DNA from: Gekko japonicus
Lineage: Eukaryota
DNA: 64,000 nucleotides
Direction: 5' to 3'
NCBI RefSeq assembly: GCF_001447785.1
Contig: NW_015163605.1
Coordinates: 212,787-276,786 of the forward strand
In this document: in pieces, positions 4,101-62,700 of the stretch
How positions within the stretch are numbered: position 1 is the stretch's first letter
Layout: each line of letters opens with the position of its first letter
Program-made: the position numbers and the translations under genes
The notes under the pieces: generated by a model
The model's input: the letters and a program-made list of their open reading frames with translations, nothing else
Databases searched by the model: none
What the model was told of the DNA's origin: nothing

Positions 4101-7100
4101 TCAGCCCCACCGACCTCACAGGGTGTCTGTTGTGGGGAGGGGAAGGGAAAGGAGTGTGTAAGCCGCTCTGAGACTCCTTTGGGTAGTGAAGGGCGGGGTA
4201 TCAATCCAATCTCTTCTTCTTCTTCTCTTCTTCTTATTATAGCCTGTTTGTCATCCTAACAGTATAAGTGCCACATACTACTACTTGAGTGCTTAGGACT
4301 TCCTGCAAGCCCACAGGCCTTATGGGTGAGTCTGTAAATAGGGCAATGCGATCAAGTTTTGAAAATGCTGAGGTCAGATTAAAAAAATGAAAGCAAAGCT
4401 GGTTTGGCCACAGATCAAATGCCAGTCCTCCCAAAGAGCAGAAGAAGTGTTCAACCTGTACCTAAAGAGGACCGCTTCAGACTGACAGGGGATCAGACAA
4501 TATCCCCTGGTCATAAAAAGAGAGAGAAAAGATTAAGCTAGACCTCAAGTCCAGTAGCACCTTGGAGACCAACAAGATGTTTTTGGGTATAAGCATTTGA
4601 GAGTCATGGCTTCCTTCGTCAGGTACTGAATTCAGCTGTTCTACAGTATACCAACATGGCTACACTCTACACCAAGGTTCAGCTAGAATCCTTTCCTCCT
4701 GCCGTTTAGTTTTCTGCCTTCAAGAAATCTTTTTAAATAGAAGGTACTGAAATCTTGTCAGCCTCCACCTGAGATACAGGTTGAACGTATCATCTGTTCC
4801 TGGTGAGCAGCGGACCTCAGGCACAAGATCTTCATCACAAGTAAAAAAGAAAGGTTGTTGAATCCGTTGTCAAATGTGGACCATCCTTACAAGCTTCAGA
4901 GGTGGTGCTGCTTGCTCAACATGCCACATCGAATCCATTTGCTAAATTAAAATAGTTTTTAAATGGGTGTTAAAGCAGTACAGCTGCCACCAGCATTACA
5001 TTAGATCACACCGGCTTGGCGTGTAGGATGTTGCCCTCTAGAGGCTTATTGGAAGATAATTTTCACTCCAACAGTTTAAAGGGAGAGAAAAAAAAGAGAT
5101 CGAAACATACATTCTCTTAACTGATGGGTATTGAGGAAACCTGTTTTCTAAGGAAGCGGGGAGGTCAATAATTGCCTAACCATTGGAAACAAAAGTGATA
5201 CCTGCCAGCAAAATTGGCCACTGGAAAAAATGATAATAACAGAGAGATAAATAATAGTTTTATGAGAGATTCTGGTACGGCTTCACTCAGTCAGTGCTAT
5301 ACAAAACTAACAGGAGTGTAAGCTGGAATTAACGGTTTTCTTGGATGGCTAAAATTAAATTATCAGCTCATTTATAGCCTCAGAGTTACAAGTGCACTAG
5401 AATCTGAGACTCTTTGCAACTCTGAATAGATTGACATTTTGAAAGCTCCTTGCCTGCTCCTCGGCCCCCGAAGCTGTTCTTCATGACCACCGTAGGCTCA
5501 AATTCACACTTCCCTTTCAGCCTCTTCCCTGATGTTTGTGTGAAAAGCAGAAAGGCAGTTTCCAAAATTTCAGGTTTCTGAATGATAGGTGGCCATGCAA
5601 GCCTGACGTTCCAACACTTCCTATGCGTTACAGTGTAGGTAATATTTTTCAAAAACCATATCCAAAACCAACCTAAGATTTCAACCGGTTGTGGATACCA
5701 CAGAGAGCTGAGTCTTCACCTTTATAGATTATTATTGTATTTTCCATTGGAATATAGGCTACGTACCATTTTTTCAAAGTTTACTAGACTGTCGATGAAT
5801 GTCTTGTTCCCTTCATGAGTAAATGTCATGTCTGCAATGTAAAAAAAAGCGGAGCCCATATAACTGCCAGTAATTAAACTGTGACATTAAATTCAAGACC
5901 ATACACACTGTTTCTTGATGTTCATGTACCCAATTAGACTGCATTTGCACATAAAAATCAGTAAAATACCAGGCTGTTCATAGATATATAAAAAATCAAA
6001 GACTTTCCCCCACTTGTAACCACCAGAAATACTTAGATTTATGAAATAACCGTTTACTTTTCTGCTTCCATGATTTGTCAAAATGGAACCAGCAGTGTAA
6101 TCCTAAACAGAGTTATTTTCTTCTAAGCCTATTGGTTTCCATGGTCTTAAAAGAGTGTAACTCTGCTTAGGATTGCAGTGAACATCCCTCATGAGACAGA
6201 GATGACAAATTGGGCTTGCTGCATTGATCTTGCTGCATTTCCACTCATTACCTTTTAGAAGCAAAGGCATAAATGGAATTACGGGAGGTTCCTGCTTAGC
6301 CACAGTGAGTCTGTAGGCCCGATGGTTTCTTGAAGGGTCCTAAGAAAACAAAAAAATGTTCAGCCGTTTTATTTACAAACAACAACTGTTATGTTACATT
6401 GCAATGATCTTGAGGTCTAATTTTCGGAAAAGACTTCCTTAAAAACAAAGAGCCACAAATGACATCATCATCAGTTTGCCTATTCTGTATAAGTTACAGG
6501 TTCTCTAATTACAATTACAATGTCATTATTTCTGTCTGTTATCACATGGGAAAACTACAGGCATAGTGACAAACAATGTGCATATCTGAACAGAATTCTC
6601 TCATTTTTCTCTTTTGAGCTTCTGCTGGGTCAGCTCCTGTAAAGCTGTAAAACCATGACTCTGGAACAATAATGCACAATAAAATCTAAAGCCAGAATGG
6701 ACAATCAAGCAGAGATATAAAGGGACAATATAGTTTTCTAAATTTCCCAGGTCGACTTTAAGCAGGGCACACATTTTCTCAGAATGGGTTCCCTGAGAGT
6801 GTAATTTATTAGTCATACATGCCCATTTTATCAGCACTATAATGGGATCATAAACTCCTTAAAGTCAAACAAGGACACATAAAATGTTAAAAAACAGAGG
6901 AATTCAGTTCAGGTACTCAGAAACAGAATGGATCCGCGAAACTCTGTTGTCATTTACCATTAAGCTTTCAAACTCTGCATAGATCTTCTTGAACTTGCTT
7001 GGAAGTTTCTGTCAATAAAAAATAATTATATTTAGAACTCTTGTGTCAAGTCAAGGTTGATTTGACCCTGCTTTTTATGTTAAACAATACTCCCCCCCCC

Positions 7101-10100
7101 ATCAGCATGTGTGGCCCCAAGCACATGATTCTCTTTCCCCATCAGCCATGTACACGAAGTGCTGCACACCCACTTCCACATGCAAGGGCAGACTTAATTG
7201 TCACCACAGCTCTTTTAACACAGCCTTGAGATGGAAGAGACTGTTCCCTTTGCCACCCTGTTTGTAACAATGCGGCAAAGAAAAATACAGTAAGTCTCCT
7301 AGCAACCAGATTATAAATAGAGAGCCACAAACTTGGAACAGATTTGGATCCAAACCTGGGGGGGGGGGTGAGAATACCAAGAAGGGATAGATTTTCCTCT
7401 TGGTCCTCAGAAAGTTATATGGCAGCAAAGGAATCCGTTTCACCATCTGGCTTTCCCAAGAAATTTTCCGGTGGGAATTTCTATTTTTTACTATATTTAA
7501 CCCTGCAGTCATAGCAATCCAGCTACATTGTTTATAGAAAACCACTGCGTAGATTCTGGTCTAATTCTGGGACCGGGAATCCTAGTTCGGAGATTGCTCA
7601 AGGTAGTACACGTGCCCTGCCCCAAAGTTGGTGTTCCCAACAAGCCTGAGTGGTAGGTTAGGCTGAGAGAGAGTGACCGGCTCAAAGTTCAGAGAGGAAT
7701 AGGAAACTGAACCTGGGTCTCTCAGATCCTAATGTGCTTCTTGGGCAACTGTGTCATATTGGCACCATAACCCTCTGGCTTGGGTTGGAATTACTGGAAT
7801 ATTTATGCTGGTAATCAACGAACCTCTACTTCTCCAAAGGCTTTTACAGGGCAATCCTAAACCGAATTGGTAGTGGAAAGTGCTGTTCAAGTTACAGGCA
7901 ATTTATGGTGATCCCGTAGGGTTTTCAAGGCAAGAGATGTTCAGGGGCGGTTTGCCATTGCCTGCCTCTGTTTAGCAACCCTGGGATTCCTTGGTGGTCT
8001 CCCATCCAAGTACTAATCAGGGCCAACCCTGCTTAGCTTCCCAGAGCTGAGAAGGTCAGGCCAGCCTGGGTCACCCAAGTCAGGGCATGCCAAGTCACAC
8101 TTTCCTAAGTCCACTGAAATCAGTGAAGCGTATAAGGGTGTAACTCTGCTTAGGGTTGCACTGTTAGACTTACAAAGTTTTATTCAAGGTACGAGCTGTC
8201 GTGTGCACGCACACTTTTTCAAATACACTGGAAGGAAGGTAAGGGTCAAACTTATAGAACCTACGTTCCACTCTAATGTATTTGAAAAAGTGGGCCTGCA
8301 CATGAAAGCTCATACCTTGAATAAAACTTTGTTGGTCTTAAAGGTGCCACTAGACTCTAAATTTGTTCTTCTGCTTCAGACCAACACGGCTACCCACCTG
8401 GATCTACTGTTAGACTTGTTCTTCTCAAATGCCAGCCCATCATGATGTATGGCAGACTGCTTTTGAAACTGAGAGGAGTTTCCAATGCAGTCTGTGCTGT
8501 GGCTGGCAGTGCGTGTGAATCAGGCCACCAAAGGAGAAAATGTCAAGCATTCCACTGAGCCACTGCAAAGCCCTCACAGGAGCATAAATTCCCGCTAGAT
8601 CTGTAGAAGTTCCAAACAAAGCAGCAACAAAGGTAATGGACCAAATCGAAGTCAGTATTTGTAAGCTTCCTGTGCAACCCTATGCAGAGTTAGTCCAGTC
8701 TAAGCCTGCTGAAGTCAATGGTCTTGGACTGGAGTAGCACTGCGTAGGACTGCACTGCTGCTGGCCAGTGGGAACTTACCTCCCATGTCAGGGTGAGGCG
8801 GCTCACAGCAACATTGCTTAGCCCCATGATTACAGCAAAAAAAGAATTCAGGTTTTTGTATTCCTTGCAGCTGAAACAGAAGAGATGGGCAGAGTTAACA
8901 TAAAAGAGTAAGAAGTTGAGAAAGAGGAAACATAATGAAAGGATTTTTTTTTTTTTTGCAAAGTGTGGCACTTTCATGCACACTGAATACTGCACTTTGC
9001 AACTGGATTTTACTGTGTAAAATGTCAAGTCACTTGCAAATGACTACTAAAGTGAATTGAAAGTGGACTGAAAGTGCATTATTCAGCATGTGTGAAAACG
9101 CTAACAGTGGAACACAGATTGCAGAAGCACTTGCATGAAGAGTTGCTTGCCTAAGGGCAAGGCAAGGGCACTAACTGATCTTGCATTTGCCAAATGAGAG
9201 GAAAAAGAGGTCGTAGTCACTGGATGTGTCGAACCACGTTAGGAGGTAGAGCTGTCCAGCCGAACATTCCTCCCTTCTTAAAGCAGTCGCCTGGGAATCA
9301 GTTGCTGATGAAGGACTTGTTTGTAAGTAGGGATGAAATCAAAAAACACAAACTGGGAAAGTCGCTATCATATGCAAAAATGTGTATTAGAATAGCAAAC
9401 ACATCAAGTGTGCAAATGGAAATACATTTATAAGACATACAATATTACAAACCAATTACAGTGTCAACAGTTTTCCAACAATTTACAGTCCAACAGTATC
9501 AACAAATTACGAAGGGTTCGGCTTCAACTTCATTTCAATGGAAAACTCATCAGAAGTGATTACCAGCAACCATTATGTATTTGAATCCTATTTTTGCAGA
9601 TGAACAGAACATTCTCTATGTTACTATGCAGTATACTATTTGGGACTAGCCCTTCAATAGGCTTAAAAACTTTTTATACGTGGGCAAATCTCTATGTGGA
9701 GTTCTTACAGCAACTAAATGCTTCTAACAGTGACATATAATTCTTAGCACTGGTAATAATTTCTGATGAAGTTTTCCATCGAAATGAAGTTGAAGCCGGA
9801 CTCTTCGTAATTTGTTGATACTGTTGGACTGTAAATTGTTGGAAAACTGTTGACACTGTGAACTGTTGGTTTGTAATATTGTATGTCTTATAAATGTATT
9901 TCCATTTGCACACTTGATGTGTTTGCTATTCTAATACATATTTTTTGCATATGATAGCAACTTTCCCAGTTTGTGTTTTTTAATTTCTATATACTGGGAG
10001 GTTTCTGCTGTGTGGTTATTTGTAAGTAGGGATGGGCATGAACTGGCTCATGAACTAAAGGTCATGAAGAATTTTGGCAGATCAACTGGCATGAACTTTC

Positions 10101-22100: not shown

Positions 22101-25100
22101 TCTACCACACTCTTGCCTACCATGCGCTTTGAAAATCTGGAAAAGACCATTTGTTAAAAGGCTGAAAAGAAGAAAAATGCAGGCTAAGAAAGACCTGTGT
22201 CAAGGATCCTGTTCCAAAGAGAGCCTCTGAATTGGGAATGTTTGACAGAGGTTAACGTACTTACATACCAGTGAGTCAAACTGGTCTCGAGGGCATGCAA
22301 AAAGACGGCCATTAACGCTGAGAGTTGTAAACACCGAAACATCATTAGGTTTCAACACCACCTTTTCTGTAAAATAACAAAAGCATAAGAGGTATGTTAC
22401 AAAATTTACAACAGTTATCAAGGATATTAGCAACAAACTTAAGATGTTAGATGTATCTCTGGTACAGAACAGAATGGTTGACCAGGGCGGAACACTACTG
22501 TTTTCTACAGTGTAGTCACCTTCTAGTTATACCTAGTCTCATGACTGGACTATCAGTACAATCCTAAAGGCACTTCCCTGGGGGTAAACCCAATTGAACA
22601 GACTTGAATAAGATACTGAATAGACTTGCTTAGGATTGCTCTCTGCGAATACCATGCTCCTATGGTCAGACACCATGATGAACTGTGGTTTACACTGGTT
22701 AGTTGTGACTCAGGAATGCAGCTTTTCTAACAAACCATGTTGGCACCAGACCAGAAATTTCAAACTAGGGTTTGTAGCTAGTTTGTCAACCACTGTTTGT
22801 CCATAAATGGCCTGGAATTTGGGGTGTGTGTAGTAGTTTGCAAAGGATTGCCAAATTATTCAGGATGGTGAAACCCAAGGTGGGTTGTGAAGAGTTACAG
22901 AAGGATTTCACCAGATTGGGTGACTGGACAACTATGTGGCAAATTATCCTAACCAGGGTAACTAAAAAGAACCTCTATACCCAGAGGCAGTAAGCTGCTG
23001 AATACCAGCACTGGAAGGCAACATCAGCAGAAGGCCTTGGCCTTTATGATCTGTTAAATGGCCCTCAAGGGCAACTGACTGGCTGCTGTAAGAAGCAAGA
23101 TGCTGGACTAGATGAACCACTGATCCAGCAGGGATCCTCTTAACTTCTCTGTTAAATAGCACTGACCCTTGCAATTTTCTGGCCACAGAGATGGAAATAT
23201 AGGGAAGATGAAGAGAAGTTAGTGGACAAACTGGACCTTACATACAACCTGGCATTTGTTACTTATATCTGGCAGATTAACAAGAGATTGTTGCAGAAAG
23301 CATGGTTTAAACAAGCTCTGATTTAACACAGTGTATGAATGCGGCAATGTCTATACATTTCCAACAACTTTCACATGGGCCTCCTAATTCTTTACTTCTT
23401 AAAATGTGTTTCATTTGTATTCGGCCTGTCTTGCAAGGAAAACTGCAGATGAAGTTCTTTACCCAGTAATTGGCCAGGCTCAGACCAACCTAGCCAGAAA
23501 TATCAGACTTGTTTTTGGGGGCAACCACAAGATTATAAAAAGGCACGAACAGCTATCCAGATGAAGTTCATTCTCCTCTTTATAGCCTCTGGGGGATGTA
23601 CTTGGGATATCACTACGGGCATGTGATGTGTTTGCACTGCAAAAATGACCCTGGGAAGACGCATTCTAGTGTGCCTTATGGCTACAGTTGCCATCCCCCC
23701 GATGGGGGCAGGGTTTCCCCTGATTTCAGGGCCCCCAATCCACTGCTGGCCAGCTGGCCGGTGGAGGAAGCCCTGCCCCAAAGAGCCCCACCGTGCCCGA
23801 AGTGCCTGGCACAATGACATCACCTGGAGGTGACGTCATTGTGCTGGGCACGTCACGCAGGGGACACTGTAACATAGAGTGTCCCCTGCACAACTTTCCC
23901 AGCATGATGATGTCACTTCTTGGCAGGGGTCATTTTGTAGAAAAAGAGGTGCAGGAGCTCATTAGCATAACATATTAGTATAACTCATTTGCATATGCCA
24001 CACACACACCCTGACATCACCGGAAGTGTGTCAGAAGGCAATACCCACCGCTCAGGCTCCACTGGACTGTTTTGGATTGCTAGCTATTGGGGGGGGGAGA
24101 GAACGTGCAGATCTGCCCTCACAGAGGAGGGAGAGTTTGTACCTGAATAAAACTTGGTCTTAATGATGCCACTGGACTGTTTTGGATTGCAAGCTATGGG
24201 GGGGGGGGAACGCGCAGATCTGCCCTCACAGAGGAGGGAGAGCTTGTACCTGAAGGCGGGTTGGGGGGGGCTCTGCAACTTACCTGGCTGCTTCTTGCTC
24301 TGACTGAGGGCTGCTGGAAGCAGGGGGCGGGGCTTGTTGCATGTGCCCACCCCCTGGGCTCCTTACCGCCGGAGCTCCACTCCTGTGCGCTCCTGCAGGA
24401 AATGACTCCTGCTTCTTGGTGATATCATCGTAGTGTGCATGCTTTGAAGATCCAGGGAAGCAGGCTGAAGTCCCCCGCAAACAGAAGGTAAGGACCTGGC
24501 ACCCCTGCTTACGGCAAGCTTTGTGAGGCTGAAAACTAGCTACTACATGCCCCTCCCAGGTTTCTTTGTAGCTCCACCCACTCAGGCAGCCTAATGGTCC
24601 CCTTCACATGGCTATTTATTTATTTATTTATTACATTTCCCCCATCTTTCCTTTTCTAAGGAGCAGAGGGCAGCTCCTGGGATTCCCCCCCCCACCCATT
24701 TTCTGCTCACTACATTCCTTAGGCAGAGAGGGACTGACTCCTCCAAGGCTACTGCGCTTCATAGCTGAGAAGGGATTTGAACCCAGCTCTCCTTGTTCCA
24801 AGTTCAGCACTAGAACCATTTCACCGCACTGGCGATATATGATTCTGGATTAGGGATAGATCTTTGCCTGGACAACAACTACCCTCTGACCCCACCCAGA
24901 ATTTTCTCCAGTTGCTTTCGAAGTCCATGCAGTTTTCAGCTCTATTGCCCATTCCCCCTTCTCAATCCCCCTACTTGTCTCCTCCCCTTCTAGACCTGCC
25001 TAGTGTCTTCCAGTCCAATGTTCCCATGCATCCCATGCTGATGACAAAGTATTAAGATATGGCCATAATGGAAGCATGCTTGAAGTACCACTGCAGCCGT

Positions 25101-28100
25101 CATTGGGATTTATCATTCTTTTGCCCTGAGACATTAACGATACCTGAAAGCAACCAAGCTATTCTAACCCCCAGATCAGAAAAGCTGTCACGTGTGTGTG
25201 TGTGTGTGTGTGTGCGTGCGTGTGTAAAGTGCTGTCAAGTTGCAGCCAACTTATAGTGATCCTGTCAAGTTTTCAAGGAAAGAGATGTTCAGGGGTAGTC
25301 TGCCATTGCCTGCCTCTGCATAGTGACCCTGGACTTCCTTGGTGGTCTCCCATTCAAAGAGTGACCAGGGCCGACCCTGCTTAGCTTCCGAAATCTGATA
25401 AGATCAGGCTAGCCTGGGTCATCCAGGTCAGGGCTTATCACTTAGAAACTCTTTAAAAATTAACATTATAATCTGTTAAGGAAAGTAACAGCCGTTTTTA
25501 TCCATATAGTGGGTTGGATCCAGACTCATGTTTCCACAGGTGGAAACACCTTATGGGCAGAAGTTTGGGAATTGGATAAACATATGGAGCAGAGGCCCAT
25601 CAGTGGCCATTAGCCACAAGGTACAGATAGGAACTCTTGGTCTAAGGCAAGTGATGCTCTGTATTCTTGGTCCCGGGGGGTGTGTGTCAACAGTGGGAGG
25701 ACTTCTAGTGTCCTGGCCCCACTGGTACACCTCCTGATAGCACTTGGTATTTTTGTGTGTGACAGAGTGTTGGACTGGATGGGCCATTGACCTGATCCAG
25801 CATTGGCTTCTCTTATGTTCTTATGTTCTTACAGCTGCAGAAATATCAGCCTGGATCCCAGCCAGTGAATTACAATAATTCCTAGCCAAAGAATTAAAAC
25901 ACACTTCTGTTTATCACTTGGGAAAACATGTGCATCCCTGACAGGTGCAAAAGAGCTTAACTGACTTATAAACCACTCTGTCCTAGCATATATCCATTAG
26001 ATTGCCACATACACCAGTGAAGGAAATCCTATTGAAATTTCAAAACACTGAAACTACTGGCACCAATTTATTTGCAAAAAGAACAGTCCTTGACAAGAGT
26101 TCCTTTTGCATTTCAGTGTAGTTTTAATGAACTGTCAGAGTGCCACATTAAAACTGGGCCCAGCAGTATCTCAAAGCAGTGTTTCCTTTCCAAATCCTTA
26201 CCTTGGCATAATTTTCAACCTTAAAGGTCAAATATTAATCTTGTAACCAAACAAAGAAAATGGAGTGAGACGTGCTGAAGTCAGCTGTAGCTAAAAGAAA
26301 AAAAAAAGCCCTTCTCCAACAGAACACTGAAGCAGAACCCATCACAGCGTGGACACATCAGCTTGACAGAATCCTGCAACTCACTCCATTTCCTGTTTGT
26401 ACAAGCACATGTTAGACTTTGGACTTGTATTTAGAGATATGAGGATACTTCTCCTGTACTAATCTTGGGAATGTGAGTAAGACACTATTTACCTCTGTTA
26501 GAATTAGCAGATAGTCTGTTTGCAGTTTCAGGTGTAGATCCACTATACCCTCTGAACATACTTCAGCATAAGGATCAGCCAGAGGTGCTGATATCCTAAC
26601 GGAATAATCCAAATGACTATGGTACAGACTTTCCCGTTAGGTGACCTTTCTCTCTAACATTTCAACTATCAAATGCTGCAAAAATTCTGCCACTGAAACA
26701 ATGTGGAAAATTATGATCTTTGGTGGCAATTGGTTTTGTGGTGCAATAGATGCACATAAGCTTATTTTATAGGCACACAGCGATCTGGGTGTCATTCCTC
26801 AGGGTGGCTGCCTATATATCCCATTTTCACAGCATGTACACGACAATGCTTCATCACCATGATCCTCACCATTGGCAAGGGCATCCAGTGCTTTTGCAGC
26901 TGGCAGGAGGTTCCACAGGCACCACAGAGTCCTGGTGGACTATACCTGCATAATCACTGGTAATGTGCAGTTAGGCCATTTGCATATTTGAGAAACCTTG
27001 GGGTAGGTGGTCTTTCTGAGACACTGAAAGTAAAAGCAGGATAACTTGCAATTTAATAAACCAGTGTCAACCTTTATAGAAAATGGCAAGGCCATCTTTA
27101 ACCATCTTTAATGCTGTCTTTCCATACCTTATTACACTAACATACCAAAAACAAAATAGTGTCAAAAATAAACAAGTGTATCCATAATGCACAGGCCCTC
27201 CAATTAAAATCAGCTTCCATGGATTAATCAGCCAAGATTAATGTAATTATTAAATCAATTAAAGCTTACATTTTCAGTTCTTCCAATAATGTAATTATGC
27301 CATGTACTTAATCTATAGGGTATGTTCCTATCTGATATTTTAGATTTCTGATTACAAAGGGGGGAGGAGAGGAGTATGAACCTTCAACTATCTCTGCTCA
27401 TGACTCTTCCTAAGAGAGAGTGAGAGAGAGAGTCCAGTTTGTCAGATATTAAAACTAATTTGAAAAAGTCTTTTAAAAGATCAGTATGAGCCTTTCCATT
27501 CCATCATGGTCCACCGCTTCAAGGTAAATGAGGAGTGTTTAAAGATTATGCAAATGCCTTACCTCCTCCAGAGCTCATCTTTACTAATATCAAGCCATCT
27601 CCAGAGCCCAGTTTGTCAGCCACGGCACTAACAACTTCTTTAACAGAAGACACCACGGGAATTCGGATAGTGGTATAGGTGTGATCTATGCAATACACCT
27701 TGAATAAAACTTCAGACAGAAAAGAGAAACTGAATTATAAATAGAGGCTGGAACAATGGGACAGACAATATGGTGCAGAACAGGAAGGACCTCCTTCATT
27801 CTACGATCAGGGCTATTTTGGGGCAGGAACGCACAGGAACGGCGCTCCCGCTGGCTCCCAAGTTGGCCACGCCCAGCAGGACTCATTAGCATAATAGGCC
27901 ACACCGAACAGCAGAAACTCATTCGGATTGGCTACAATTAGGGGTGTGTGGCCTAAAATGCAAAAAGCCCTGGGTTTTGACAACAAACAAGGTAAAGAGA
28001 ATAAGAAGCAAAAGGTGGGTGTGGCTGGATGACCACACTTCTGGTAACATGGGGTGTGGCCTAATATGCAAATGAGCTGTGCTGTCAGGGGTGTGACCTG

Positions 28101-31100
28101 ATGTTGGGTATGGCCTATTATGCTAATAAGTTCCTGCTGGGCTTTTTCTACAAAAAAAAGCCCTGTCTACGATGGTCCTCAAAACATACCGAAAGTCCTA
28201 AACTATTTTTAACTATTGCACCTAACTCACACTGCAATCCTAATCAGAGTTACATGCTTTGACTTCAATGGATTTAGGGAGGTATAACTCTGTTTAGGAT
28301 TGCATTGCTAAACTAAGGAAATAGAGGAAGCGTCGTATGTAACCTGACTACTTGCATTCTACCTCACTATTTAAAATTATTTATTTCTTAGCCCAAGTTT
28401 GTTTACTGAACGTCGTAGCAGAACAGAGATTTGAATCTCGGTCTCCCTTGCCCTAATCCAACACTCTAATCATCATGTCATGAATGTTCATAAAATGTCC
28501 ATTTCCAGTACTTAATAGCTTCCTTCCTCTAGTTTTTCTTAATTGTAATGCAAAAGACCAGTGAGATGAATCCTTTTGGCTTTCCTACAAACCATCATTT
28601 GATAACCTTAAAATCATGCCACAGGTATGCATGTTCCTGCAATTTCTCACAGTATATTTGCTCTAAGCACTGCTTGTATCAAAAGGAACAATATAAAAAG
28701 TTATAAAGAGTAAAGATTTACAGGCTTCAATGTTTTGGGAGTATGAACCCTACATATTATTTTAAGTCAAGACCTTACCAAATTGGGAGATATTTAGATT
28801 TGGGAAGTTTCAGATACTTCTATTTCCCCCCACACACACACAACGAACAAAATGGGCTTCATCCTTTAAAACCTAGTAATATTAATGAAATTCAGTAGAA
28901 ATATTGCTGCTAAAATACATGCCCTTTTTTCAAAGTGGAGTATAAACAGTTTAAAAATGTCATAAAACTGCATATAATAGAAAAAATTGCATAAATATCT
29001 TTAAAAACGCTAATCGAAAATGAGAATTTGCCAAGGAAAATAAACGGGACAAAAAATCTTTTCAGTCATATATGAAAATCAAAAAAAAACAAAGTAGAAT
29101 CAATTATTGTTGGAAAATTTGGACTGGGAGCTCAAAAAGAAGCAGGAGAGTGACTCACAGAATTCTGTGAAGACAACAAATTGTTCACTGCAAAGAAATT
29201 TCAGGCAACTGAACAAACTACTGCATGTGTGGACATCACTGGATAGCCAATTCAGGAATCAAACAAATGACATAATTGGAAGAATATGGAGAAGCTCCAG
29301 TCTCTCGGCTAAAACAAGACCAGGAGCTAACTGTGGTAAAGACCATGAAGTGTTAATATTTAAAATTAGAATAAATCTGAAGAAAAACACCAAAACATTC
29401 ATTGTGCCAAAATGCAATCTAAGCAATGTTCTTGAAATGGATCGTATAATGAACAGATTTACATTTGTTCAAGTAAATATGAACTGGAAGAGATATGGGT
29501 TGAACCAGTGATATTATCAGCTTGCAAGACCTGAGCAAGTTTGTTAATGACAGGAAGTTTTGGAGGCCACTCATTCATGGCGTCACCATAAGTTGGAAGC
29601 GACTTGATGGCACTAAGCACACACACAGACACACAAAACGGATGCCTTTTCCCCCAAAGGTGAGTGTAAACATGTAAAAATGGCATACAATTGTTTCTAA
29701 CAGAAACATGATATAAAACACCATTAAAAATTCCAAAAGAAAATGGGAATTTGCCAAAGAAAACAGATGGGACAGAAACAGTCTTTTCAGCCATAGATGA
29801 AAAGTTAAACAAATAGAACATATATGCATACATCCCTAAGTTTAAAGCTGCAATCTGGGAAAAAAACATTTCTGGGAGTAAACCCCACTGAATAAAATGG
29901 GGATTACTTGTGAGCAGACCTGCTCCTAACTGTGTCAACTTAAGCAGCGTTATATCCTTCTTAGCCCATAGATTTCACAGAATTTAAAAGGATGTAACTC
30001 AGGTTTAGGACAGCTCCATAAGTCACTTAAAAATCAACAAGCGCATTATAATTTTTTGATTTTTGCAAAAAATGTTGTGCACTTTTGGCTGAATCTCTGG
30101 CATGGGGTTGCTTTACTAACAGATACGTCAGTATAAAGTACAGCAAAATCAGGATGAAGTGAGTTCATCTACAGTGAAGTTCATTATGGGGGTGAGTTTG
30201 GTTCAGGGCTTAGAGTATCATGCCTTAAGGCATTAGTAGACCACCCACCTGAGTTTCATTCCCTTCTAGCACCACAGTTTAAGGATCCCACACATTCACT
30301 TACTTTCATCACTTCCCCTGATAGGCTGCCGTTTTTGAGTCCTTTCATCACTTGTATTAAAGTGCTGCAAAAGAACTTTGTGCTGGAAAAACAAAACACC
30401 ATCTTCATAAGAGTGAGGAAAATCTCAGATTTATTGTACGTAATAGTAATATCCACAGACTAATATTCATACAGTAAAATACTGTACGTAATAGTAATAT
30501 CCACAGACTAACAAAATATTCATACAGTAAAATGCCTGTGTGTTCTGGCTACAGAAGGGCATCTTCAACTATGACCCTTTTAATGTGTTCAAATCCAATG
30601 GTTCACGTGTACATATAAATATGTCTCTCCATGATAAACATGTGTTTTCTAAAATACATATGATGTGGATATATAAGACAGGATTGGTTGTGACTCATTA
30701 CCACATCAGTGTGTGGTACAGATGTATCTGGCCCAAGAACAAATGGTAAAAATAGGTGCTATTTGATTTATTTATGATCTCATCTTTTCTCCAAGGAATT
30801 CAAGGTGGTTTAAATAATCCCCTATGGTTAACAACAACCTGCAGTAGGGCAGGTTGCTGAGAAAGAAAGGCCCTTCACCTAATGAATATAACAGCTGAGC
30901 AGGGATTTGAACCAGGGTCTTCCCGTCATAATCTGACACCCAACCCACTACACCACAATGGCTCTTCACTGGGTATGTGCACTGGTTGAGAAAACAATAG
31001 TTTTTATAGGGGTATTTTTATTCTTATGATCGAGTATTAAAAAATATTTACCTTTTTCTGAGGTGCTTTAGCTTCTTCTGATCTATCAAAAGCAAATAAC

Positions 31101-34100
31101 AGCATTCACTGACATTCTTTTGGAAGATTGGAACAACCATCTATCAGTCTAACGGTTATGTGTGCTTTACAAGACTTTCCTATGTAGCAGTTACAGACTG
31201 TTTGCACTCCAGTGTCACAACTAACTGGGTTCAATATGTCTGGATGCAGCCTTAGGACACTTCCAGATAGAGGTGTTAGGGAGTGCTGGACAAAGTCACA
31301 CAGGAACTCTGCTCATTGGCTGCCATTTTGCAGTACACTGCTGCTAGCACCATGGCATCTAAGACAGAACCAACCTGCCTTTTCTTTGTGATACTTCCAC
31401 AACAGCAGCTGGAAGGGGTTCTAACTAGAACTCTAGCAAACACATGTAACAGCAAACCGGGGGGGGGGGGGGGATTCTTCAGGACACAGGAATTTAGACT
31501 GAAGAATGGGCAGGGGTCATGGCTCAATAGTACATTACCTGCTTTGCATGAAATAAGTTCCTGGTTCAATACAGAGATATTGACCAGAAAGACTGACCTA
31601 GACAGCCTGACTCAGCGTCATGTGGTCGATATGTTCGGAAGCAGCAGGGCAGGGCAGGGCAGGTACTGAACCCTTTCTCCACCCACTCTTTCTCTACGTT
31701 AAATGGCTACAACCCCCATAACTTTTTAGGACCAGCAGGCTCAAAAGTGTTTTCATAAACCTTGTGTTGCCTTCTCCACCATGTTGTCTAGTAGTACAAA
31801 ATGCCTAAGATGTTTCCCAGTGTTCTTCAAGGTCCACCCCTCCAGCCCATCTTTCCACTACCTTGGCTGCTCCTTGAGGATGGCAGAGACACTGAGAGAG
31901 ACTGTGTATATTAATAGTTAATATAAACTAGTCCATCCTCTAGTCCCTCTCTCTCCAATAATATCTAATATTACACAGTTAATGCCTCACCGTCATTTCT
32001 TTCTCAGTTTTTCTGCCATTCTCAAGGAGCAGCCAATGAAGCGGAACAATGGGAGATATATATATACATATAAAATATATAAACATTCCTAAAAATAGAT
32101 TCAGGTGGGTAGCGTGTTGGTCTGAAGTAGTGTTCCCGCTAAGCTGAGTTAGTGTGCGCTAACAGTTTTTTAGCTTCCAGCTCACACATTTTTGTCCTAG
32201 CTCAGGAAGGATGACTCCAGAGCAGACTAATTTATGCAGTAGCCAAATCGCTCACTCACAACTTTAATGCCAGTAGCTCACAAAGTAGAATTTTTGCTCA
32301 CAGGACTCCAGAGCTTAGAGGGAGCATTGGTCTGAAGTAATAGAACAAAGTTTGAGTTCAATGGCACCTTTAAGACCAACAAAGTTTAATTCTGGGTATA
32401 AGCTTTTGTGTGCATGCACACTTCTTCAGGTATCTGGAAAATTGGGTATGCACATGAAAGTTTATACCCAGAACTGAACTTTGTTAGTTGTAAAGGTGTC
32501 ACTGGACTCATTCCTAAAAATGTTCTAGCTAAGTTCTTCATTGGTGGCTATTCCAAAAACAGGAATGGTTAATGGCTAATATTAGAGATCTGTAAAGAGT
32601 AAATCAGTCGAAAGTTACACTTACAGCCGTTTCATCATTTTTTCCAGCTCTGGGAGTTGGTCTTTGAGTGCTGTAATCATCCTTGTATCATCTGATACAG
32701 ACACATAAAACTCCTGGTAAATGATAAAAAATACTCTTCAAACAATAATCCAAAGAAATTGTTGATTTGTCAAGATACAATATCTTGGGGACCATGGTGC
32801 TGAAGAAAGAGGAAGTTTTCTACTCTGATACCATTTTCCCAATCAAACACAATCCCCATGCTGTGCTTTTAGCCCCAGGAGAGAAAAAGACAGGTACTCC
32901 TCCCATGACTGTATTTTTTTCACTAGTAGAGTTAATAGAAACCTGAGAAGGAAGTCATTTCATTTGGGAAAATGGCATAGGGAGAGAAAAAAGTGTCAAA
33001 ACTTCTATGATCCATATCAGCCCCTCCCTCCATTGCTTTTTTTAAGATGAACAACAGACACGTAGGGAGTTCCAGTCACAAAACTCCAATATCACATGTA
33101 GTGTGACTCTGCAAACATGACCAAACAATATGAATAATTAGTCATTGTTGTCTTGTAATCTGATCAATAAAAGTAATTTTGATTGTCATGGAAAGGTTTT
33201 AATCTACTTTCTCATCTTACAGTCAGGATTTTTTTTAAAAAAAATTATACTGTACATTTAATATTTTTATTATTTCTGAAAGATATGCTACTAGCAATTA
33301 CTAACTGCAGCTTCTATGTGAAAGTTTCCACAACATTGCTCTGTCCAGTTAACATGAGAGTCAAATGTCTAGTTCCCATGTCTTCCCAATGGACATATTT
33401 TCACAACTATTCTAACCTGACACAGTTCAAATTACGAAATAAGACACCATTTTCCAATGAGCTGGTATCTTTCTTTTCCTACGACTGCAGCCACAATATT
33501 GATTGTTGCAAAATTCACTGCGGACAGAAATATCGCTCTGCAGTTTAAAGTCATCTCCCTGGAAAGTGAATTCTAAAACTGGAGAAAATAGCCTCAACAC
33601 AGTTCTTTCGTGCCTCTCCATAAACGGTTGCTGTTATGGATTTATAACTGTTGTTTTTATAGGGTTTTGTTTATGCTGTAAACTGCCTTGAGATCTGCAA
33701 GGGAGAAAGCAGCTAATAAATGTTTAAAAATAAATATCCTTCTGAAAGCAAATGGCACCTGTAGCGGCTATGCCCCTACCTCCAGAAAGGCCATGGCAGC
33801 TTCATCTTCTTGCAGGAGATCTCCATACAAAGCAGCCCACTGCAGGACTAGGCGGATGACCCGCCTTTTATTGTTTAGGGCGTAATCCATTTTTTCTTGC
33901 TCGGTGCCTTGGGAAGGTTGAGCATGGTAAGTGCCGTGATGTCAAGGAAAACATTAGACTCGGCTAGCCTTTTATCTCCCTTTCCAGAATCCCCCAGACT
34001 TTGCTCATGACATACTTTTCAGTCAATTAGCTCTCATTCTCTAGGAAACATAACTGCCTAGGAGGAATTCACAATCAATGAGATTTTCACATGTTCCCAG

Positions 34101-37100
34101 GTTTAAAGATTTTTGTGTCTTCAGATTCTTTATGAGAAGGGGGGAAAGGTAAACCTAACGGCCATTTCATCTTAAAAGACAATGGATTGATTGTTCACAT
34201 AACGAGACATGGGTACAGTTCGTAAGTTGCCTAGGTTGCAGATCCTCTTTGTGTCATCGGGAAGAGTGGGCGCACAACTTTACCTGCACTGTGAATTTGA
34301 GGCCATGCCTGATTCAAAGGTTCCATACATGGAGATATATATCCATAAACCAATCTCCTTGATTCTCACCCTGCCCTCAAAAAAGGAGGATGAAAAGAGG
34401 ATCTAGGTCAGTGTATGGACTAGGCCTATGGTCTTAGCCAGCAAGGCAAAGATACAATACCAATATACAACATGGGTAGTGAACACAAAATAAGTAAGAA
34501 GCAATGCAGATATGTTGTTTATATTACTGCCTTATTGTCATTTCAGAATCTATGACAATCCCATTATTATGCTAGCAATTTCAACCAATAGAGATATTTG
34601 TGTTCTTCATCTTGAGATTCCTGCCTTTGTAATGCAAGCCAAAGACAATAGGGAGCCCTTGGTGTACAAGAATAGCCACAAATAACACCCACCAAGGGAA
34701 GACCATCCACAATTCACAACAATATATGCTCAAAACTGTATATTTACATTCATTGAAGTACAAAAATGGGTGAGTGGTCATAACGCAATAGAATGTCTAA
34801 TAGGCACATATCCAACAGATTGCTCATGACAATTAAACATATTTTACATATTTTACAATAAGAATGTGTTCAAAATTAACAGTAGGCTCCTCTGAAATTC
34901 CATAAATAGTGTCCATAGACCTCCAAACAGAAATTAACTGCAGCAGAAGATACCCACTCTGGAAAGAACAACAGCCAACATACGTCTCTCCCAGATATAA
35001 ATCAAAACGTTTAAATGATCTTCAACAACGGTTGATAAAATGAACCCGATTTCCAAAATAACATATGCCCAGCTCAGTAGCTTCAATGAGATCCCAGGTG
35101 AGTAACAAGGTTAAAACACCGAAAATCAGTTCAAAATAAAACAAAACAATAAAGCATAATGAACTCAACAACTAACTAATAGCTAACAACTAAAAAGTTC
35201 AAAAGCTCTCTTGAAGAGTTTGGGTAGGCAGCCCCTTTGGAATGCCATTAAGGTGAGTGGCCCTTCCTCAACTCTTCTTTGAAAGCCTTCCATAAAATGG
35301 GCAGCCACAGGAAAATCTAATCATGAACAGGAATTAGTGCACTGCATCTGGAGCAGGGGTACATAGCCCAAAGATGTTGCTGTACCATATACAGTTGCCA
35401 CATTGGATCAGATCAGGATCCTTCAGGTATGTGGCCCCCGGTCATAGTATCATAGAATCATAGAGTTGGAAGGGGCCATACAGACCATCTAGTCCAACCT
35501 CCTGCCCAATGCAGGACCAGCCTAAAGCATCTCTGACAAATATTCGTCCAGCCTCTTCTTGAAAGCTGTCAGTGAAGGGGAGCCAACCACCTCTCTAGAC
35601 AGCTGATTCCACCTTTGAACTACTCTGACCGTGAAAAAGTTTTTCCTAATATCCAGCCGATACCTTTCTGCGTGTAATTTAAACCCATTCCTTCGGGTCC
35701 TATCCTCTGCTGCCAACTGGAATAGCTCCTTGCCCTCCTCCAAATCACAGCCTTTCAAATATTTAAAGAGAGCAGTCATGTCCCCCCTCAATCTCCTCTT
35801 CTCCAAACTAAACACTCCCAGGGCCCTTAGCCTTTCCTCGTAGGGCTCAGTCTCCAGTCATGAAGAGCTTTACAGGTAAGCACCAGAATCCTGCATTATC
35901 AACCAAGAAACAAATAGCAAACAATGAAGAGTTTGTAAAATGTATTTATTTTCTTTATACTCTGCCTTTCTTCCAGAAACTCAAAGCAGAAGGGAAGTGA
36001 CATGCCCCCAGTGACTGATGGCGATAAAAAGTGCCAATAAGTCATAGCTGACTTATGGCAATGCCATCAGCTTTTCAAGGCAAAAGATGTTCAGAGGTGG
36101 TTTGCCATTGCATGCCTCCACTTAGCAACCCTGGACTTCCTTGGTGGTCTCCCATTCAACTACTAACCAAGGCCAACCCTGCTTAGCTTCCAAGACTTGT
36201 TGAGATCAGGCTAGCCTGGGCCATCCAGATCAGGCTCCCAGCAACTAGCCCCTGATAACATTCTGTGCCAATTGGCAATTCTGGAGTACTTTCCAGAGTA
36301 CATTATTTAACAACCTAAAAGCATGAAATGGGGGAGAGGGGGACCCTGGCGTTCTTGGTCACTGCTGTAGTCCAAGGGAAGTAGGGTATGTTCAGGTTTC
36401 TACTGCCAATAATTTATTGTCCAATGGCAGCATTAGCCTGGGACTCCAGTTAGGGGTAGTGGTAAGAGAAGGCAATATTCACTGCCTCCCCCATGTGTGT
36501 GTGTGGGGGTAAGCATTCAAGGGGGTGCTGTGTTCCTTTGCTATAACAAAGTCAGTCCCTTCACATTCATCTTCCTCTAGCATACTTTCTCAGACAACGT
36601 GTCGCTCTGCACAGATACCATTTATCCATTAAAAAATAACCAGAGCTGGCTTATAAAACAATGACAGCCAGTAAGAAGAGGAGGAGGAGGAGGAGGAGAT
36701 TGGATTTATACCCCGCCCTTCACTCGGAGTCTCAGAGCGGATTACAAACGCCTTTCCCTTTCCCTCCCCACAACAGACACCCTGTGAGCAATGCTCCCTC
36801 TAAGCTGTTGAGTCTTGTGAGCAAAAATTTTACTTTGTGAGCTCCTGGCATTACAGTTGTGAGTGAGCGATTTGGCTACTGCATAAATTAGTCTGCTCTG
36901 GAGCCATCCTACCTGAGCTAGGACGAAAATGTGTGAGCCAGAGGCTAAAAAACTGTGAGCTAGCTCACACTAACTCAGTTTAGAGGGAACACTGCCTGTG
37001 AGGTAGGTGGGGCTGAGAGAGCTCTTTCCAGAACTGTCCTTGGGAGAACAGTTCTTCTGACAGAACTATGGCTTGACCAAGGTCATCCAGCAGCTGCGAG

Positions 37101-40100
37101 TGGAGGAGTGGGGAATCAAACCCGGTTCTCCCAGATTAGAGTCCACGCTCCTAACCACTACACCAAACTTGTAAACCGCAGTGGGAACAGATTGCAGGTT
37201 CGGTTCTGGGTGCCATCACAGAAAAGATTCTGTCTCTGGTCACCACCTACCTTACTTCCAAAGGTGAAGGTATTCAGAGCATGGCTTCTGTAGAAGGATC
37301 TGGCTAATAGGTTCTTAACTGGTGGCTAAGTTTAAATTGGCTCTCCCATTGATTGCTCATTGACACAGGCCTTCAGAGAGTAGGGGCATTCTGAACAACA
37401 GCATTTTTTTTTGCTGATTTTTTTTAACATTTATTGAATGACAAAACATATACAGATATTGATTTAGAACTTTAAAATTATTTTAAAAATGACTCTGACT
37501 ATAGTGTCTCTCAGGTCATCTGGGATGCAATGAAGGCATTGATCAGAGGGAAGTACATTGCAATTGCTTCAATCTTCTGTGGAGACCTCCCCTCCAGTGC
37601 CCACTGTCTTTGCGAGGCTGCCGGTGAGCTGTTGAAAGGGGGGGGTTGTCACTTATTCTTCAGCCCATTCATAATTAGCTTAGTGGATGCGGCCTACTGT
37701 CTACCCCTGTTCCCAATAGATTAGTCCGTCAGCCAAACAATAGCCCTTCATATTTTTGTTTCCTTATTTGTTCCCAGTCAAGTTTGTCTATGTTCATTTT
37801 CTCTAATACGGGGTACCATTTATCCATAGGGTTAAATTCTGAACAACAGCATGGCCAAGGGAATCAGGTTGGCTTTTAAATAACCGTAGGAGCATGTTAT
37901 CACAGGTGTTACTACAGCTCACTGGATCCATTACAGTTTACTGTGGGTAGGCCTACAATCCATTTAAACTAAGGATGGTTTGCCCCACTCCCCTCTCCTT
38001 TACAGATTTTAGCTGCTGGAGCCGTGCTCTCCACAGAGAGTGTGGGAGGGTACCTGCATTTCTTCATCTCCAGTGGAGATAAAAGTAGTTTAGGGTTAGG
38101 CACTCTTGGGATAAAAACAACACAAGGGGAATGTTAAAAAGATCATCCTCTCCCCCTTTCCTGTCTCCATGTAGAAATTAGCAGCAATCTGTACGGGAGA
38201 GGGGGAGGAGTTCTTTAATGATTATGGGATAACACCTATCGTGTATTCTGCTCCCCCTAACTGTTGGGATTATTAGTGCTTCCTGAGGCAGCTGTCTCTA
38301 TCCTCAAGGGTTTCCGTAGGTAGTTGAACTCCAAATAGTTTCAAAACAGTGTTTTTAAAAAGTAGCCAGTTCATTCAGGTGTAAAATTCTATCACTTTTT
38401 GAAAGGGCAAATTTTGACAGGAAAATTAGACAGCCATGATTGTTTGGCACAGCCTTAGGTTTACTGCACGTTATAACATCTATCTTGAACTCCAATGTCA
38501 TGGTCACTAAACATGGATCTGCAAACATGGGTTTGAATTCTAGTCCCGTTCAGCTCCAAATGTGATTTTAAGCAGATTGTCTGACTGGCTGCGAGATACA
38601 GAGGGAAGGGGGGCTCATGAATAAAAGGAAAATTGAATGCAGTGGTATCCTGTGTTTCCCAGGTGGAATTAATGGCCCAGAATATTTTCCACATATGACA
38701 GTTCTGACAAGCAGAGGGCCCAATGTGACAATAATTCTTAAAATAAAGTGCTTCCTTCAAATCAAAGCATGAGAAGCTTGACATGCAATCTATGGTATGA
38801 CTCCAAAGATTTTCAGCAGCTCAAAGGGGGGGGGGAACCCCCCACAAGAAATCTAGGGAAAAAGCTCTCCAGTCTCCAGAAGATACAGTAACATGTACAA
38901 TGCGACTAAATTGGTAATTTAAGGGGGAGGGGGAAACATTTAGGAAGTGAAGCTTAATAAGCCATAATTTTATAACGGTTTCCTTGAAGTCTTAATAAAA
39001 AAAAGCTACTAGGAAATTAAGACATTCTGTCAGGACTCCCATTACAGCAATTTGGCTGCTGGGATTTGGGGATATTTATAACAACCCATATTTTAATTCA
39101 TTTTGGAAAATAGTTAGTTAAGAAAAAGGAAAGCTAGATAGGTTATTTTATGGAGGTGGGATATAGTTGCGCTTAAGCTTCAGTCTCTATAATATTTCAG
39201 ATATCCAGAAACATTTCACCGAGTCAGTCTCCTCATGCAGTTTCCACTATGCAAGCACTGTAATTATTTAATATCCTTTAACCTGCTTATTAAGTGACTC
39301 ACCGCAGGCATTACTAATTTTTCCCCCTATTCCCATTGCTCGTCTACTTATTTTTAATTCCGCTAATAATTTCTCCCATGCAAATGCTATCACAGGAAAA
39401 CTCGGGGGGGTGGGGGGAAACCCTTTCTGAAATGTTCGGGCTGCGTATCTATCAGAATAATAGCTTTATGTATAAATAAATGCCAGAGAGGCTGTAATTT
39501 CTGAAGTATTAATCAACAATGATGTTGTGACTGAATACTGATTTCGGAAAATGTTGTTGCCTCAAAACTGAAGCAAGCGGTGCCTCCTTCAGTGCAATCT
39601 GGTATCCAATTCCATTCAGGATGGAGTATGCACATGGGTGCAGATGCATGCCAAATGCCAGTCTTTACATATATATTTATACATACAGACAGATATATAT
39701 TTTTGTACTTGTTGGCCATGTTTGGCTTTAACCGATTTCGGGGGGGGGGAACCCTATGAATCCTACAAGAGTCAATGCTGACAGAGCAGCGTACATCTCT
39801 ATCCTTACAAATCTTTTTAGCAGGTAGATAGCAGGTTAACTATTGTGGCTTCTCCCAAAGAATTCAAGGAAATATAATCTGGTGAAAGTGCTGAGAACTT
39901 TCTCTGTTGACGTTTCTTAAGATCACCCCAACAAAGCTATAATTCCCAAGGTTCCCTGGGGAGAGGGAGTGAATGTTATACCAGCTTAACCCTGTGGTAC
40001 ACGTGATGAGGGTACCATATGTTTACACCATTGACACAAACCGTGGCTCCCCCAGGCTGTTTCAGTTCAAAGAAATAGCATTACGGGACAACTCTCCTTT

Positions 40101-62270: not shown

Positions 62271-62700
62271 ACTGGTTCAGAATCTTTAAATTTGGGGAGA
62301 TGTGTTGAAAAGAAGCTGAAAGTTGGATTTTAATTATTTTGTCAGTGGCAAATTTTACAGCCCCAGTTCCTCTTCCTGGGGGTACACCTGTACCCCCATA
62401 TTTAGAAGAAGAGAGAAGAGATTGGATTTATACCCCACCCTTCACTACCCAAGGGAGTCTCAGAGCAGTTTACAAACTGGTTCAGAATCTTTAAATTTGG
62501 GGAGATCTATTGAAAAGAAGATGAAAGTTGGATTTTAATTATTTTTTCAGTGACAAATTTTACAGCCCTAGTTCCTCTTCCTGGGGGTACACCTGCACCC
62601 GCATATTTAGAAGAAGAGAGAAGAAATTGGATTTATACCCCGCCCTTCACTACCTAAGGGAGCCTCAGAGCAGCTTACAAACTCCTTATTCCCTCCCCAG
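62271..62700. repeat. Tandem duplication, period about 205 bp, each unit including a Squam3-like SINE tail
   Basis: actggttcagaatctttaaatttggggaga at 62271 and 62476. Confidence 0.9.

Follow-up and report, generated by a model that had tools for sequence, protein, structure and literature searches.

Structure of the insertion

The stretch of DNA analysed here, referred to as the window, comprises 64,000 nucleotides of Gekko japonicus contig NW_015163605.1. A repeat search of the window detected a palindrome with arms at 32353-32429 and 32434-32510, each 77 nt long, 79% complementary and separated by a gap of 4 nt. The predicted fold of 32340-32520 has an energy of -76.8 kcal/mol on the minus strand (z -11.3) and -93.1 kcal/mol on the plus strand (z -14.7), with none of 200 shuffles being as stable on either strand. 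These arms and fold energies confirm the palindrome of about 158 bp that a preliminary description of this DNA had placed at 32353..32510. The coordinates given there for the element are right, but the true insertion is larger than the palindrome, extending over 32097-32508 with an interruption of 202 nt, and its long arm runs on beyond 32353. The locus contains the following features:

32084..32096, plus strand: left target-site duplication, 13 nt, AT-rich, identical to 32509-32521
32097..32119, minus strand: outer end ('tail') of the long arm, ending approximately 109-110 nt past the loop-II ATG
32128..32329, no strand assigned: 202-nt element with terminal inverted repeats, inserted in the long arm
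32330..32429, minus strand: inner part of the long arm, with the core running from C3 (32429) to N17 (32400) and G12A at 32407
32430..32508, plus strand: short arm, a degenerate hammerhead followed by approximately 61 nt from the ATG position (32448)
32509..32521, plus strand: right target-site duplication, 13 nt, bounding the whole insertion
32625..32713, minus strand: host exon, RAPGEF4 (Epac2)-like, with AG/GT borders (phmmer against PDB sequences, E 5e-8)

The insertion lies in an intron of the RAPGEF4-like gene, approximately 115 nt downstream of the 5' splice site of the exon at 32625..32713. The match of this minus-strand exon to RAPGEF4 indicates that the minus strand is the pre-mRNA strand, as had been proposed. 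A Pfam search with 16 ORFs of the window gave no match at E < 0.01. Sequencing reads aligned to 24000-40000 formed pile-ups on repeats, being derived from other loci, and are uninformative about the insertion; among the splice joints listed for them, none was at the exon.

Following the core, the inner part of the long arm takes in the 86 nt that begin at the loop-II ATG (32415), and the tail at 32097..32119 fits the long class of 3' ends found in the family (+105 to +114). The short arm stops at approximately +61, which is 10-15 nt less than the main class; the lengths of both arms (~+109-110 and ~+61) are hand counts from the loop-II ATG of the ribozyme. Divergence of the long arm amounts to 3 of 63 columns, similar to that of other family copies, and the short arm departs from the family majority at 8 of 60 columns. 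The 202-nt element is flanked by an 8-nt duplication of its own (32120-32127 and 32330-32337). It occurs twice more in the window (36789-36993, 91%; 13929-14135, 84%), each copy again with its own 8-nt duplication. Judged by its anatomy, we take this element to be a hAT-type MITE. Its position inside the long arm indicates that the stub of the Penelope-like element (PLE) described below is the older event.

Several other repeats were observed in the window. Four 5S rRNA-like matches (7970-8078, 14217-14329, 25318-25445 and 36120-36228), two of which pass the gathering score, lie within dispersed repeats and are likely to be the heads of 5S-derived SINEs. An abundant SINE-like family, which we take to resemble the squamate Sauria SINEs, is found at 3944-4224, 14912-15187, 19632-19908, 36682-37172 and 41148-41424. 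A near-perfect direct duplication (50225-51624 and 52337-53725, with a spacing of ~2.1 kb) flanks an N run at 51625-52336 and may be an assembly artefact. Two further pairs, at 62271-62680 and 9376-9945, are a tandem one of 205 nt (94%) and a long inverted one whose arms are 92-99% complementary.

Hammerhead motifs at the locus

The two 38-mers quoted in the preliminary description (32396-32433 on the minus strand and 32430-32467 on the plus strand) are letter-for-letter correct. In the minus-strand copy, G12 is replaced by A (32407); G12 is the proposed general base of the hammerhead according to PMC6155905. The replacement sits at a CpG, in support of the earlier suggestion of CpG decay. The minus-strand copy starts at C3, with the four letters before the core being the complement of the start of the other arm. 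The change at G12 had thus been correctly noted, but the 5' strand of helix I, thought to be weakened, is actually missing. The plus-strand copy carries two core changes (A6G and G8A), and both its helix II and the palindrome of its helix III are broken. No minimal type I hammerhead with an intact core and helix I was found at the locus. An Rfam scan of the window returned 13 matches at E up to 1, with no hammerhead family among them, and the isolated 38-mers fold no better than shuffles (z -0.55 and +0.20). For these reasons the identification of the ribozyme is based on the family and not on the two local copies. Weak Rfam matches to microRNAs at 32375-32492 and 8202-8302, far below the cut-offs, reflect the hairpin.

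A transcript of either strand contains one sense copy together with its near-complement, and is predicted to form a single long hairpin in which the motif is buried. The PLE hammerhead dimer, as it is described in PMC4209133, requires two sense copies. Because the motifs lie on opposite strands, each transcript has one sense copy and the published cis dimer is impossible; a cis dimer of the two local motifs was accordingly ruled out, and the dimer action envisaged in the preliminary description does not apply at this locus. The core mutations, the lack of a helix I 5' strand and the burial in a long hairpin lead to the prediction that both copies are inactive, and by established hammerhead rules they are likely to be dead.

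Abundance and covariation of the hammerhead family

We used the region of the palindrome as a query against the 2.49-Gb genome assembly, which is vertebrate-like (CpG observed/expected ratio 0.26); this yielded 3,045 candidates, 40 of which were scored. An intact-core pattern gave 463 exact matches in the genome, a looser descriptor in which helix II was left free gave 4,991, and a 34-nt stretch of the arm gave 4,154, the reversed-pattern control being 0 in each case. These counts show abundance and not function; the 4,991 descriptor matches support the proposal that the family is spread through the genome. When positions 3 and 8 were left free, 830 matches were obtained, 259 of them with U3-A8. 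A hand count of the first 100 of these 830 gave 64 C-G, 32 U-A, 3 U-G and 1 C-A.

Among the first 40 of the 4,991 descriptor matches, the 3-8 pair was C-G in 28, U-A in 9 and mixed in 3, and an extra A preceded helix II in 39. The fourth pair of helix II was T-A in 22 and A-T in 10 of these 40, and was paired in 34 compared to a shuffle mean of 21 (0 of 5000 shuffles). The covariation score was 0.214, compared to 0.111 for shuffles (0 of 500), although the count of pairs with a two-sided change did not beat shuffles (103 of 500). The 3-8 and helix II swaps mark subfamilies and hence represent few independent events. Helix I pairing and the helix III palindrome were fixed by the search patterns and were unable to vary. 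The preliminary description had held that a family consensus without the CTGANGA/GAAA core or without helix covariation would count against it; covariation is present at the 3-8 pair and in helix II.

At the level of the family, we thus find the CUGANGA/GAAA core, the 3-8 pair and a paired helix II, and by its sequence the family motif is a minimal type I hammerhead. This agrees with the layout recognised earlier, that of the minimal hammerheads in PLE pseudo-LTRs. According to PMC3884650, C3 and G8 form a tertiary Watson-Crick pair, and Schistosoma PLEs are reported to have the U3-A8 form (PMC4209133), so that the swap is what selection on the ribozyme fold would yield. Our literature search found the U3-A8 core only in PMC4209133.

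Copies with U3-A8 have common flanks of their own. The window contains a second fold-back of the family, at 8161..8405, with the U3-A8 core variant in both arms. The subfamily to which it belongs (8161-8405; loci L151-L175, L102 and L103) has a distinct pseudo-LTR sequence upstream, and its N17 is mostly C; in L102 and L103 it comes after an RT ORF, in partial tandem. This subfamily probably had a single origin. A sister family whose helix II differs is represented by a decayed copy at 4548..4665.

Identity of the element

Three walks upstream from the ribozyme, with 30 loci each, showed that other copies contain a shared pseudo-LTR upstream of the ribozyme and then an ORF for GIY-YIG and RT. 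Seven translated ORF pieces were searched for domains. The piece from L102 matches RVT_1 (E 2.7e-10), and those from L118 and L110 match GIY-YIG, with E-values of 1.4e-5 (above the Pfam cut-off) and 0.0011 (below it), respectively. The other four have no RT or GIY-YIG match, one giving a weak unrelated match and three none, and a PDB search with the endonuclease piece from L110 gave 0 matches. In related loci RVT_1 is followed by GIY-YIG, the order of an ORF with RT and, at its C-terminus, GIY-YIG. All of the ORF pieces are broken and none is full length, the window stub carries neither domain, and no intact full-length element was found among the loci walked.

In L091, the arm that comes after the ORF and pseudo-LTR matches the long arm of the window at 92.6% identity across 94 nt, and the ribozyme is located downstream of the ORF in related loci. 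In L123, the one clear case among 30 loci, the arm continues in frame, with one stop, into the N-terminal region of the ORF, so that the hammerhead-bearing pseudo-LTR overlaps the ORF start. The arm of the Anolis element is likewise in frame with its ORF (PMC11167929). We conclude that the insertion in the window is almost certainly the end of an endonuclease-bearing PLE. The family had been called non-coding in the preliminary description; its arms are instead the 3' end of an element that encodes RT and GIY-YIG.

A CX4CxxC linker is present ahead of the endonuclease in 24 of 30 loci. Linkers of the form CX2-5CxxC are reported to mark Neptune and Nematis and to be absent from Penelope/Poseidon (PMC8557442). 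The gecko loci thus have the linker before GIY-YIG that is found in Neptune, a motif that does not separate Neptune from Nematis, and on this one motif of the predicted protein the clade is likely to be Neptune-type. Assignment to the Poseidon clade was dropped in view of the linker in 24 of 30 loci, Penelope/Poseidon being characterised by its lack.

In the subfamily of the window, codon 10 after the loop-II ATG is a stop, so this subfamily may have moved with the help of sister subfamilies. Just past the ORF stop, L064, L066, L073 and others have an extra 60-nt piece of the arm approximately 260 nt upstream of the ribozyme. This piece is apparently an old self-insertion, with its start some 4 nt ahead of the predicted cleavage site, and stems from one ancestral event.

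A literature search gave no account of this particular gecko PLE family, no paper on Penelope/Poseidon in gecko and none devoted to lizard fold-back stubs, and a term search of the supplement text of PMC11167929 did not find the family. It may already be catalogued in Repbase/Dfam, and may already be shown in the figures or sequence file of PMC11167929, the supplements of PMC4209133 or those of preprint 10.64898/2026.07.22.740005.

Architecture of the fold-back copies

Across 112 arms in 80 loci, the outer ends have two preferred positions, +105 to +114 (40 arms) and +70 to +79 (34 arms); another 13 lie at +60 to +64. A set of 26 distinct fold-backs (L002-L030 minus three repeats of the same places) contained 22 with one long and one short arm, 3 with two short arms and 1 with two long arms. 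The spacing at the junction in these 26 ranges from -24 to +24 nt, the junction positions being biased toward that of the window by retrieval with the window palindrome as query. L003 (G000:C14682) is a fold-back with two full-length arms, against the usual long-plus-short form. Exact duplications of at least 8 nt were present in 13 of 25 fold-backs, compared to 15 of 600 control pairs; with the 13-nt duplication at the locus, the copies show an inverted 5'-truncated copy, a one-sided tail and a target duplication.

The two arms of one locus share 0.88 rare letters a pair, compared to 0.35 between loci (1 of 5000 permutations; 22 shared in 25 loci, L003 excluded). None of 63 columns separates long from short arms.

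We also examined 30 arms chosen by the stretch downstream of the ribozyme, a selection independent of the ribozyme itself. Of these genomic copies, 23 continue 5' beyond the cleavage site by more than 5 nt, and 15 extend to C3 or further. Only 3 of the 30 end at most 2 nt from the predicted cleavage site 3' of N17, where the 5' ends thus show no peak. An inverted partner was found within 700 nt in 13 of these arms and within 30 nt in 9; in the sample of descriptor matches, 10 of 40 had an inverted partner within 150 nt.

Origin of the insertion

Taken together, we consider it very probable that the locus represents one insertion made up of two short, head-to-head, hammerhead-bearing ends of a likely Neptune-type PLE, probably produced by two-sided priming and with ribozymes that are predicted to be dead. 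The two-sided step itself, in which both cut DNA strands would have served as primers for reverse transcription of one and the same uncleaved RNA, we hold to be rather probable. The protein of the element would nick the two strands of an AT-rich target at points approximately 13 nt apart. One nick would prime at the far start (~+110) and the other at the near start (~+60 to +75), and both cDNAs would halt at the hammerhead's 5' edge before being joined. CpG decay and the insertion of the MITE would have followed. The prevalence of one long plus one short arm (22 of 26) and the lack of a cluster of 5' ends at the cleavage site fit two-sided priming on uncleaved RNA. Cleaved RNA as the main template finds no support, with only 3 of 30 arms ending at that site. 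In work on Anolis Poseidon, the protein is reported to nick and extend both strands at AT-rich targets. The tail there is defined by a pair of internal RT start sites, of which the far one lies at +111 to +118, and the RNA template is uncleaved, ribozyme cleavage taking place only with the protein and not being needed for insertion (PMC11167929).

The main rival for the second-arm step is self-priming, in which one cDNA or template would fold back on itself at a short inverted repeat around helix I; it would leave the PLE origin unchanged, and we regard it as possible though distinctly less likely. Palindromes of this kind have been explained by self-priming on an antisense template (PMC3846280), and at the gecko copies the junctions are often near the 5' edge of the ribozyme, an inverted repeat of 4 nt surrounds helix I in the subfamily of the window, and helix II is itself palindromic. 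Self-priming would also account for the rare letters shared between partner arms, a feature that could also reflect gene conversion or subfamily structure. What self-priming alone leaves unexplained is that the second arm ends at the other preferred class of RT start in 22 of 26 fold-backs, and that some arms have widely different inner ends or spacers. We consider it improbable that the PLE protein copies the entire fold-back from a hairpin transcript, which would make it a SINE- or retrozyme-like mobile unit of non-autonomous kind. In favour of this reading, compact fold-backs are common (9 of 30 within 30 nt; 10 of 40 within 150 nt), some junctions are seen repeatedly in a few forms and the ORF in the subfamily of the window has its early stop. 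A preprint from 2026 derives animal retrozymes from PLE pseudo-LTRs, but its retrozymes are tandem repeats with a ribozyme in each unit, unlike the fold-back (10.64898/2026.07.22.740005). A unit copied whole is also at odds with the variable junction spacing (-24 to +24 nt), with the lack of arm-specific columns, with arms that are closer to their own partner than to same-side arms elsewhere, and with the continuous gradation of the copies into longer ORF-bearing pieces.

Least likely, to the point of being very remote, is that the sense-strand copy in the intron still works as a ribozyme or has been domesticated as one, cutting or regulating the pre-mRNA of the RAPGEF4-like gene. The copy is on the pre-mRNA strand, ~200 nt from the splice donor, and conserved intronic hammerheads are known in amniotes (PMC6155905), but G12 is A, the helix I 5' strand is absent and the motif is predicted to be fully paired within the long hairpin. 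Its divergence of 3 in 63 columns is no different from that of other copies, and even intact minimal PLE ribozymes are described as weak and dependent on dimers or protein (PMC4209133, PMC11167929). The locus is likely to be an ordinary dead insertion scar of short, mutated, back-to-back PLE end pieces in an intron.

Returning to two-sided priming, the thousands of stubs might be read more broadly as a genomic record of this process in a Neptune-type element, starting from two fixed RT starts on uncleaved RNA, with the hammerhead kept under selection (the C3-G8 to U3-A8 and helix II swaps of successful subfamilies) although the templates were uncut, and serving as a place for RT to stall and for the cDNAs to be joined; this we offer as a speculative reading that we doubt. 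The locus itself being ordinary, the parts worth keeping are the family-level copy statistics and the U3-A8 subfamily. PLE transposition is poorly understood, and in the sources cited here in vitro work covers only a Poseidon element. The outer ends, the long-plus-short arms, the shared rare letters and the 5' ends make two-sided priming by a Neptune-type element testable, and the natural U3-A8 subfamily forms a ready pair with C3-G8 for asking what role the PLE hammerhead plays. Annotators should be aware that palindromes of this kind may pass for MITEs or microRNA hairpins.

Comparison with known systems

Insertions of endonuclease-bearing PLEs are described as having a pseudo-LTR, an adjacent inverted 5'-truncated copy, a one-sided tail of 30-40 nt and a target duplication (PMC8557442, PMC3846280). 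The inverted truncated copy, the tail and the duplication are thus already known as typical of PLEs, and their minimal hammerheads from PMC4209133. The gecko locus resembles these units in its head-to-head inverted copy, in the tail on one arm, in the duplication around the pair and in the hammerhead within the pseudo-LTR; it differs in that both copies are reduced to the last 80-125 nt, so that no ORF lies between them.

The family is similar to the Anolis carolinensis Poseidon PAc, as reported in PMC11167929, in that the ORF begins within the helix II region of the ribozyme, two preferred ends are separated by ~36 nt, the more distant being near +110, the target is AT-rich and the RNA template would be uncleaved. 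Unlike PAc, the gecko family has the CX2-5CxxC linker that Penelope/Poseidon are described as lacking.

The locus shares its type I hammerhead, its PLE ancestry and its non-coding character with the non-LTR retrozymes described in 10.64898/2026.07.22.740005. Those retrozymes repeat head to tail in tandem, each unit bearing a ribozyme, whereas the locus is head-to-head with one sense copy per strand. Head-to-tail tandem units were not found here; the sampled copies are dispersed, single or inverted, and do not form tandem arrays, which speaks against the retrozyme type suggested in the preliminary description.

Minimal hammerheads are on record for Poseidon, Neptune and reptiles (PMC4209133). 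The gecko motif agrees with the metazoan PLE hammerheads described there in its short helix I, the lack of a loop 3 and the palindromic 15.2-16.2, in the extra nucleotide between 9 and 10.1 and the G10.1-C11.1 pair, and in its thousands of dispersed copies with opposite-strand pairs. The U3-A8 form, which in PMC4209133 is that of Schistosoma mansoni, marks a vertebrate subfamily here (259 of 830 matches).
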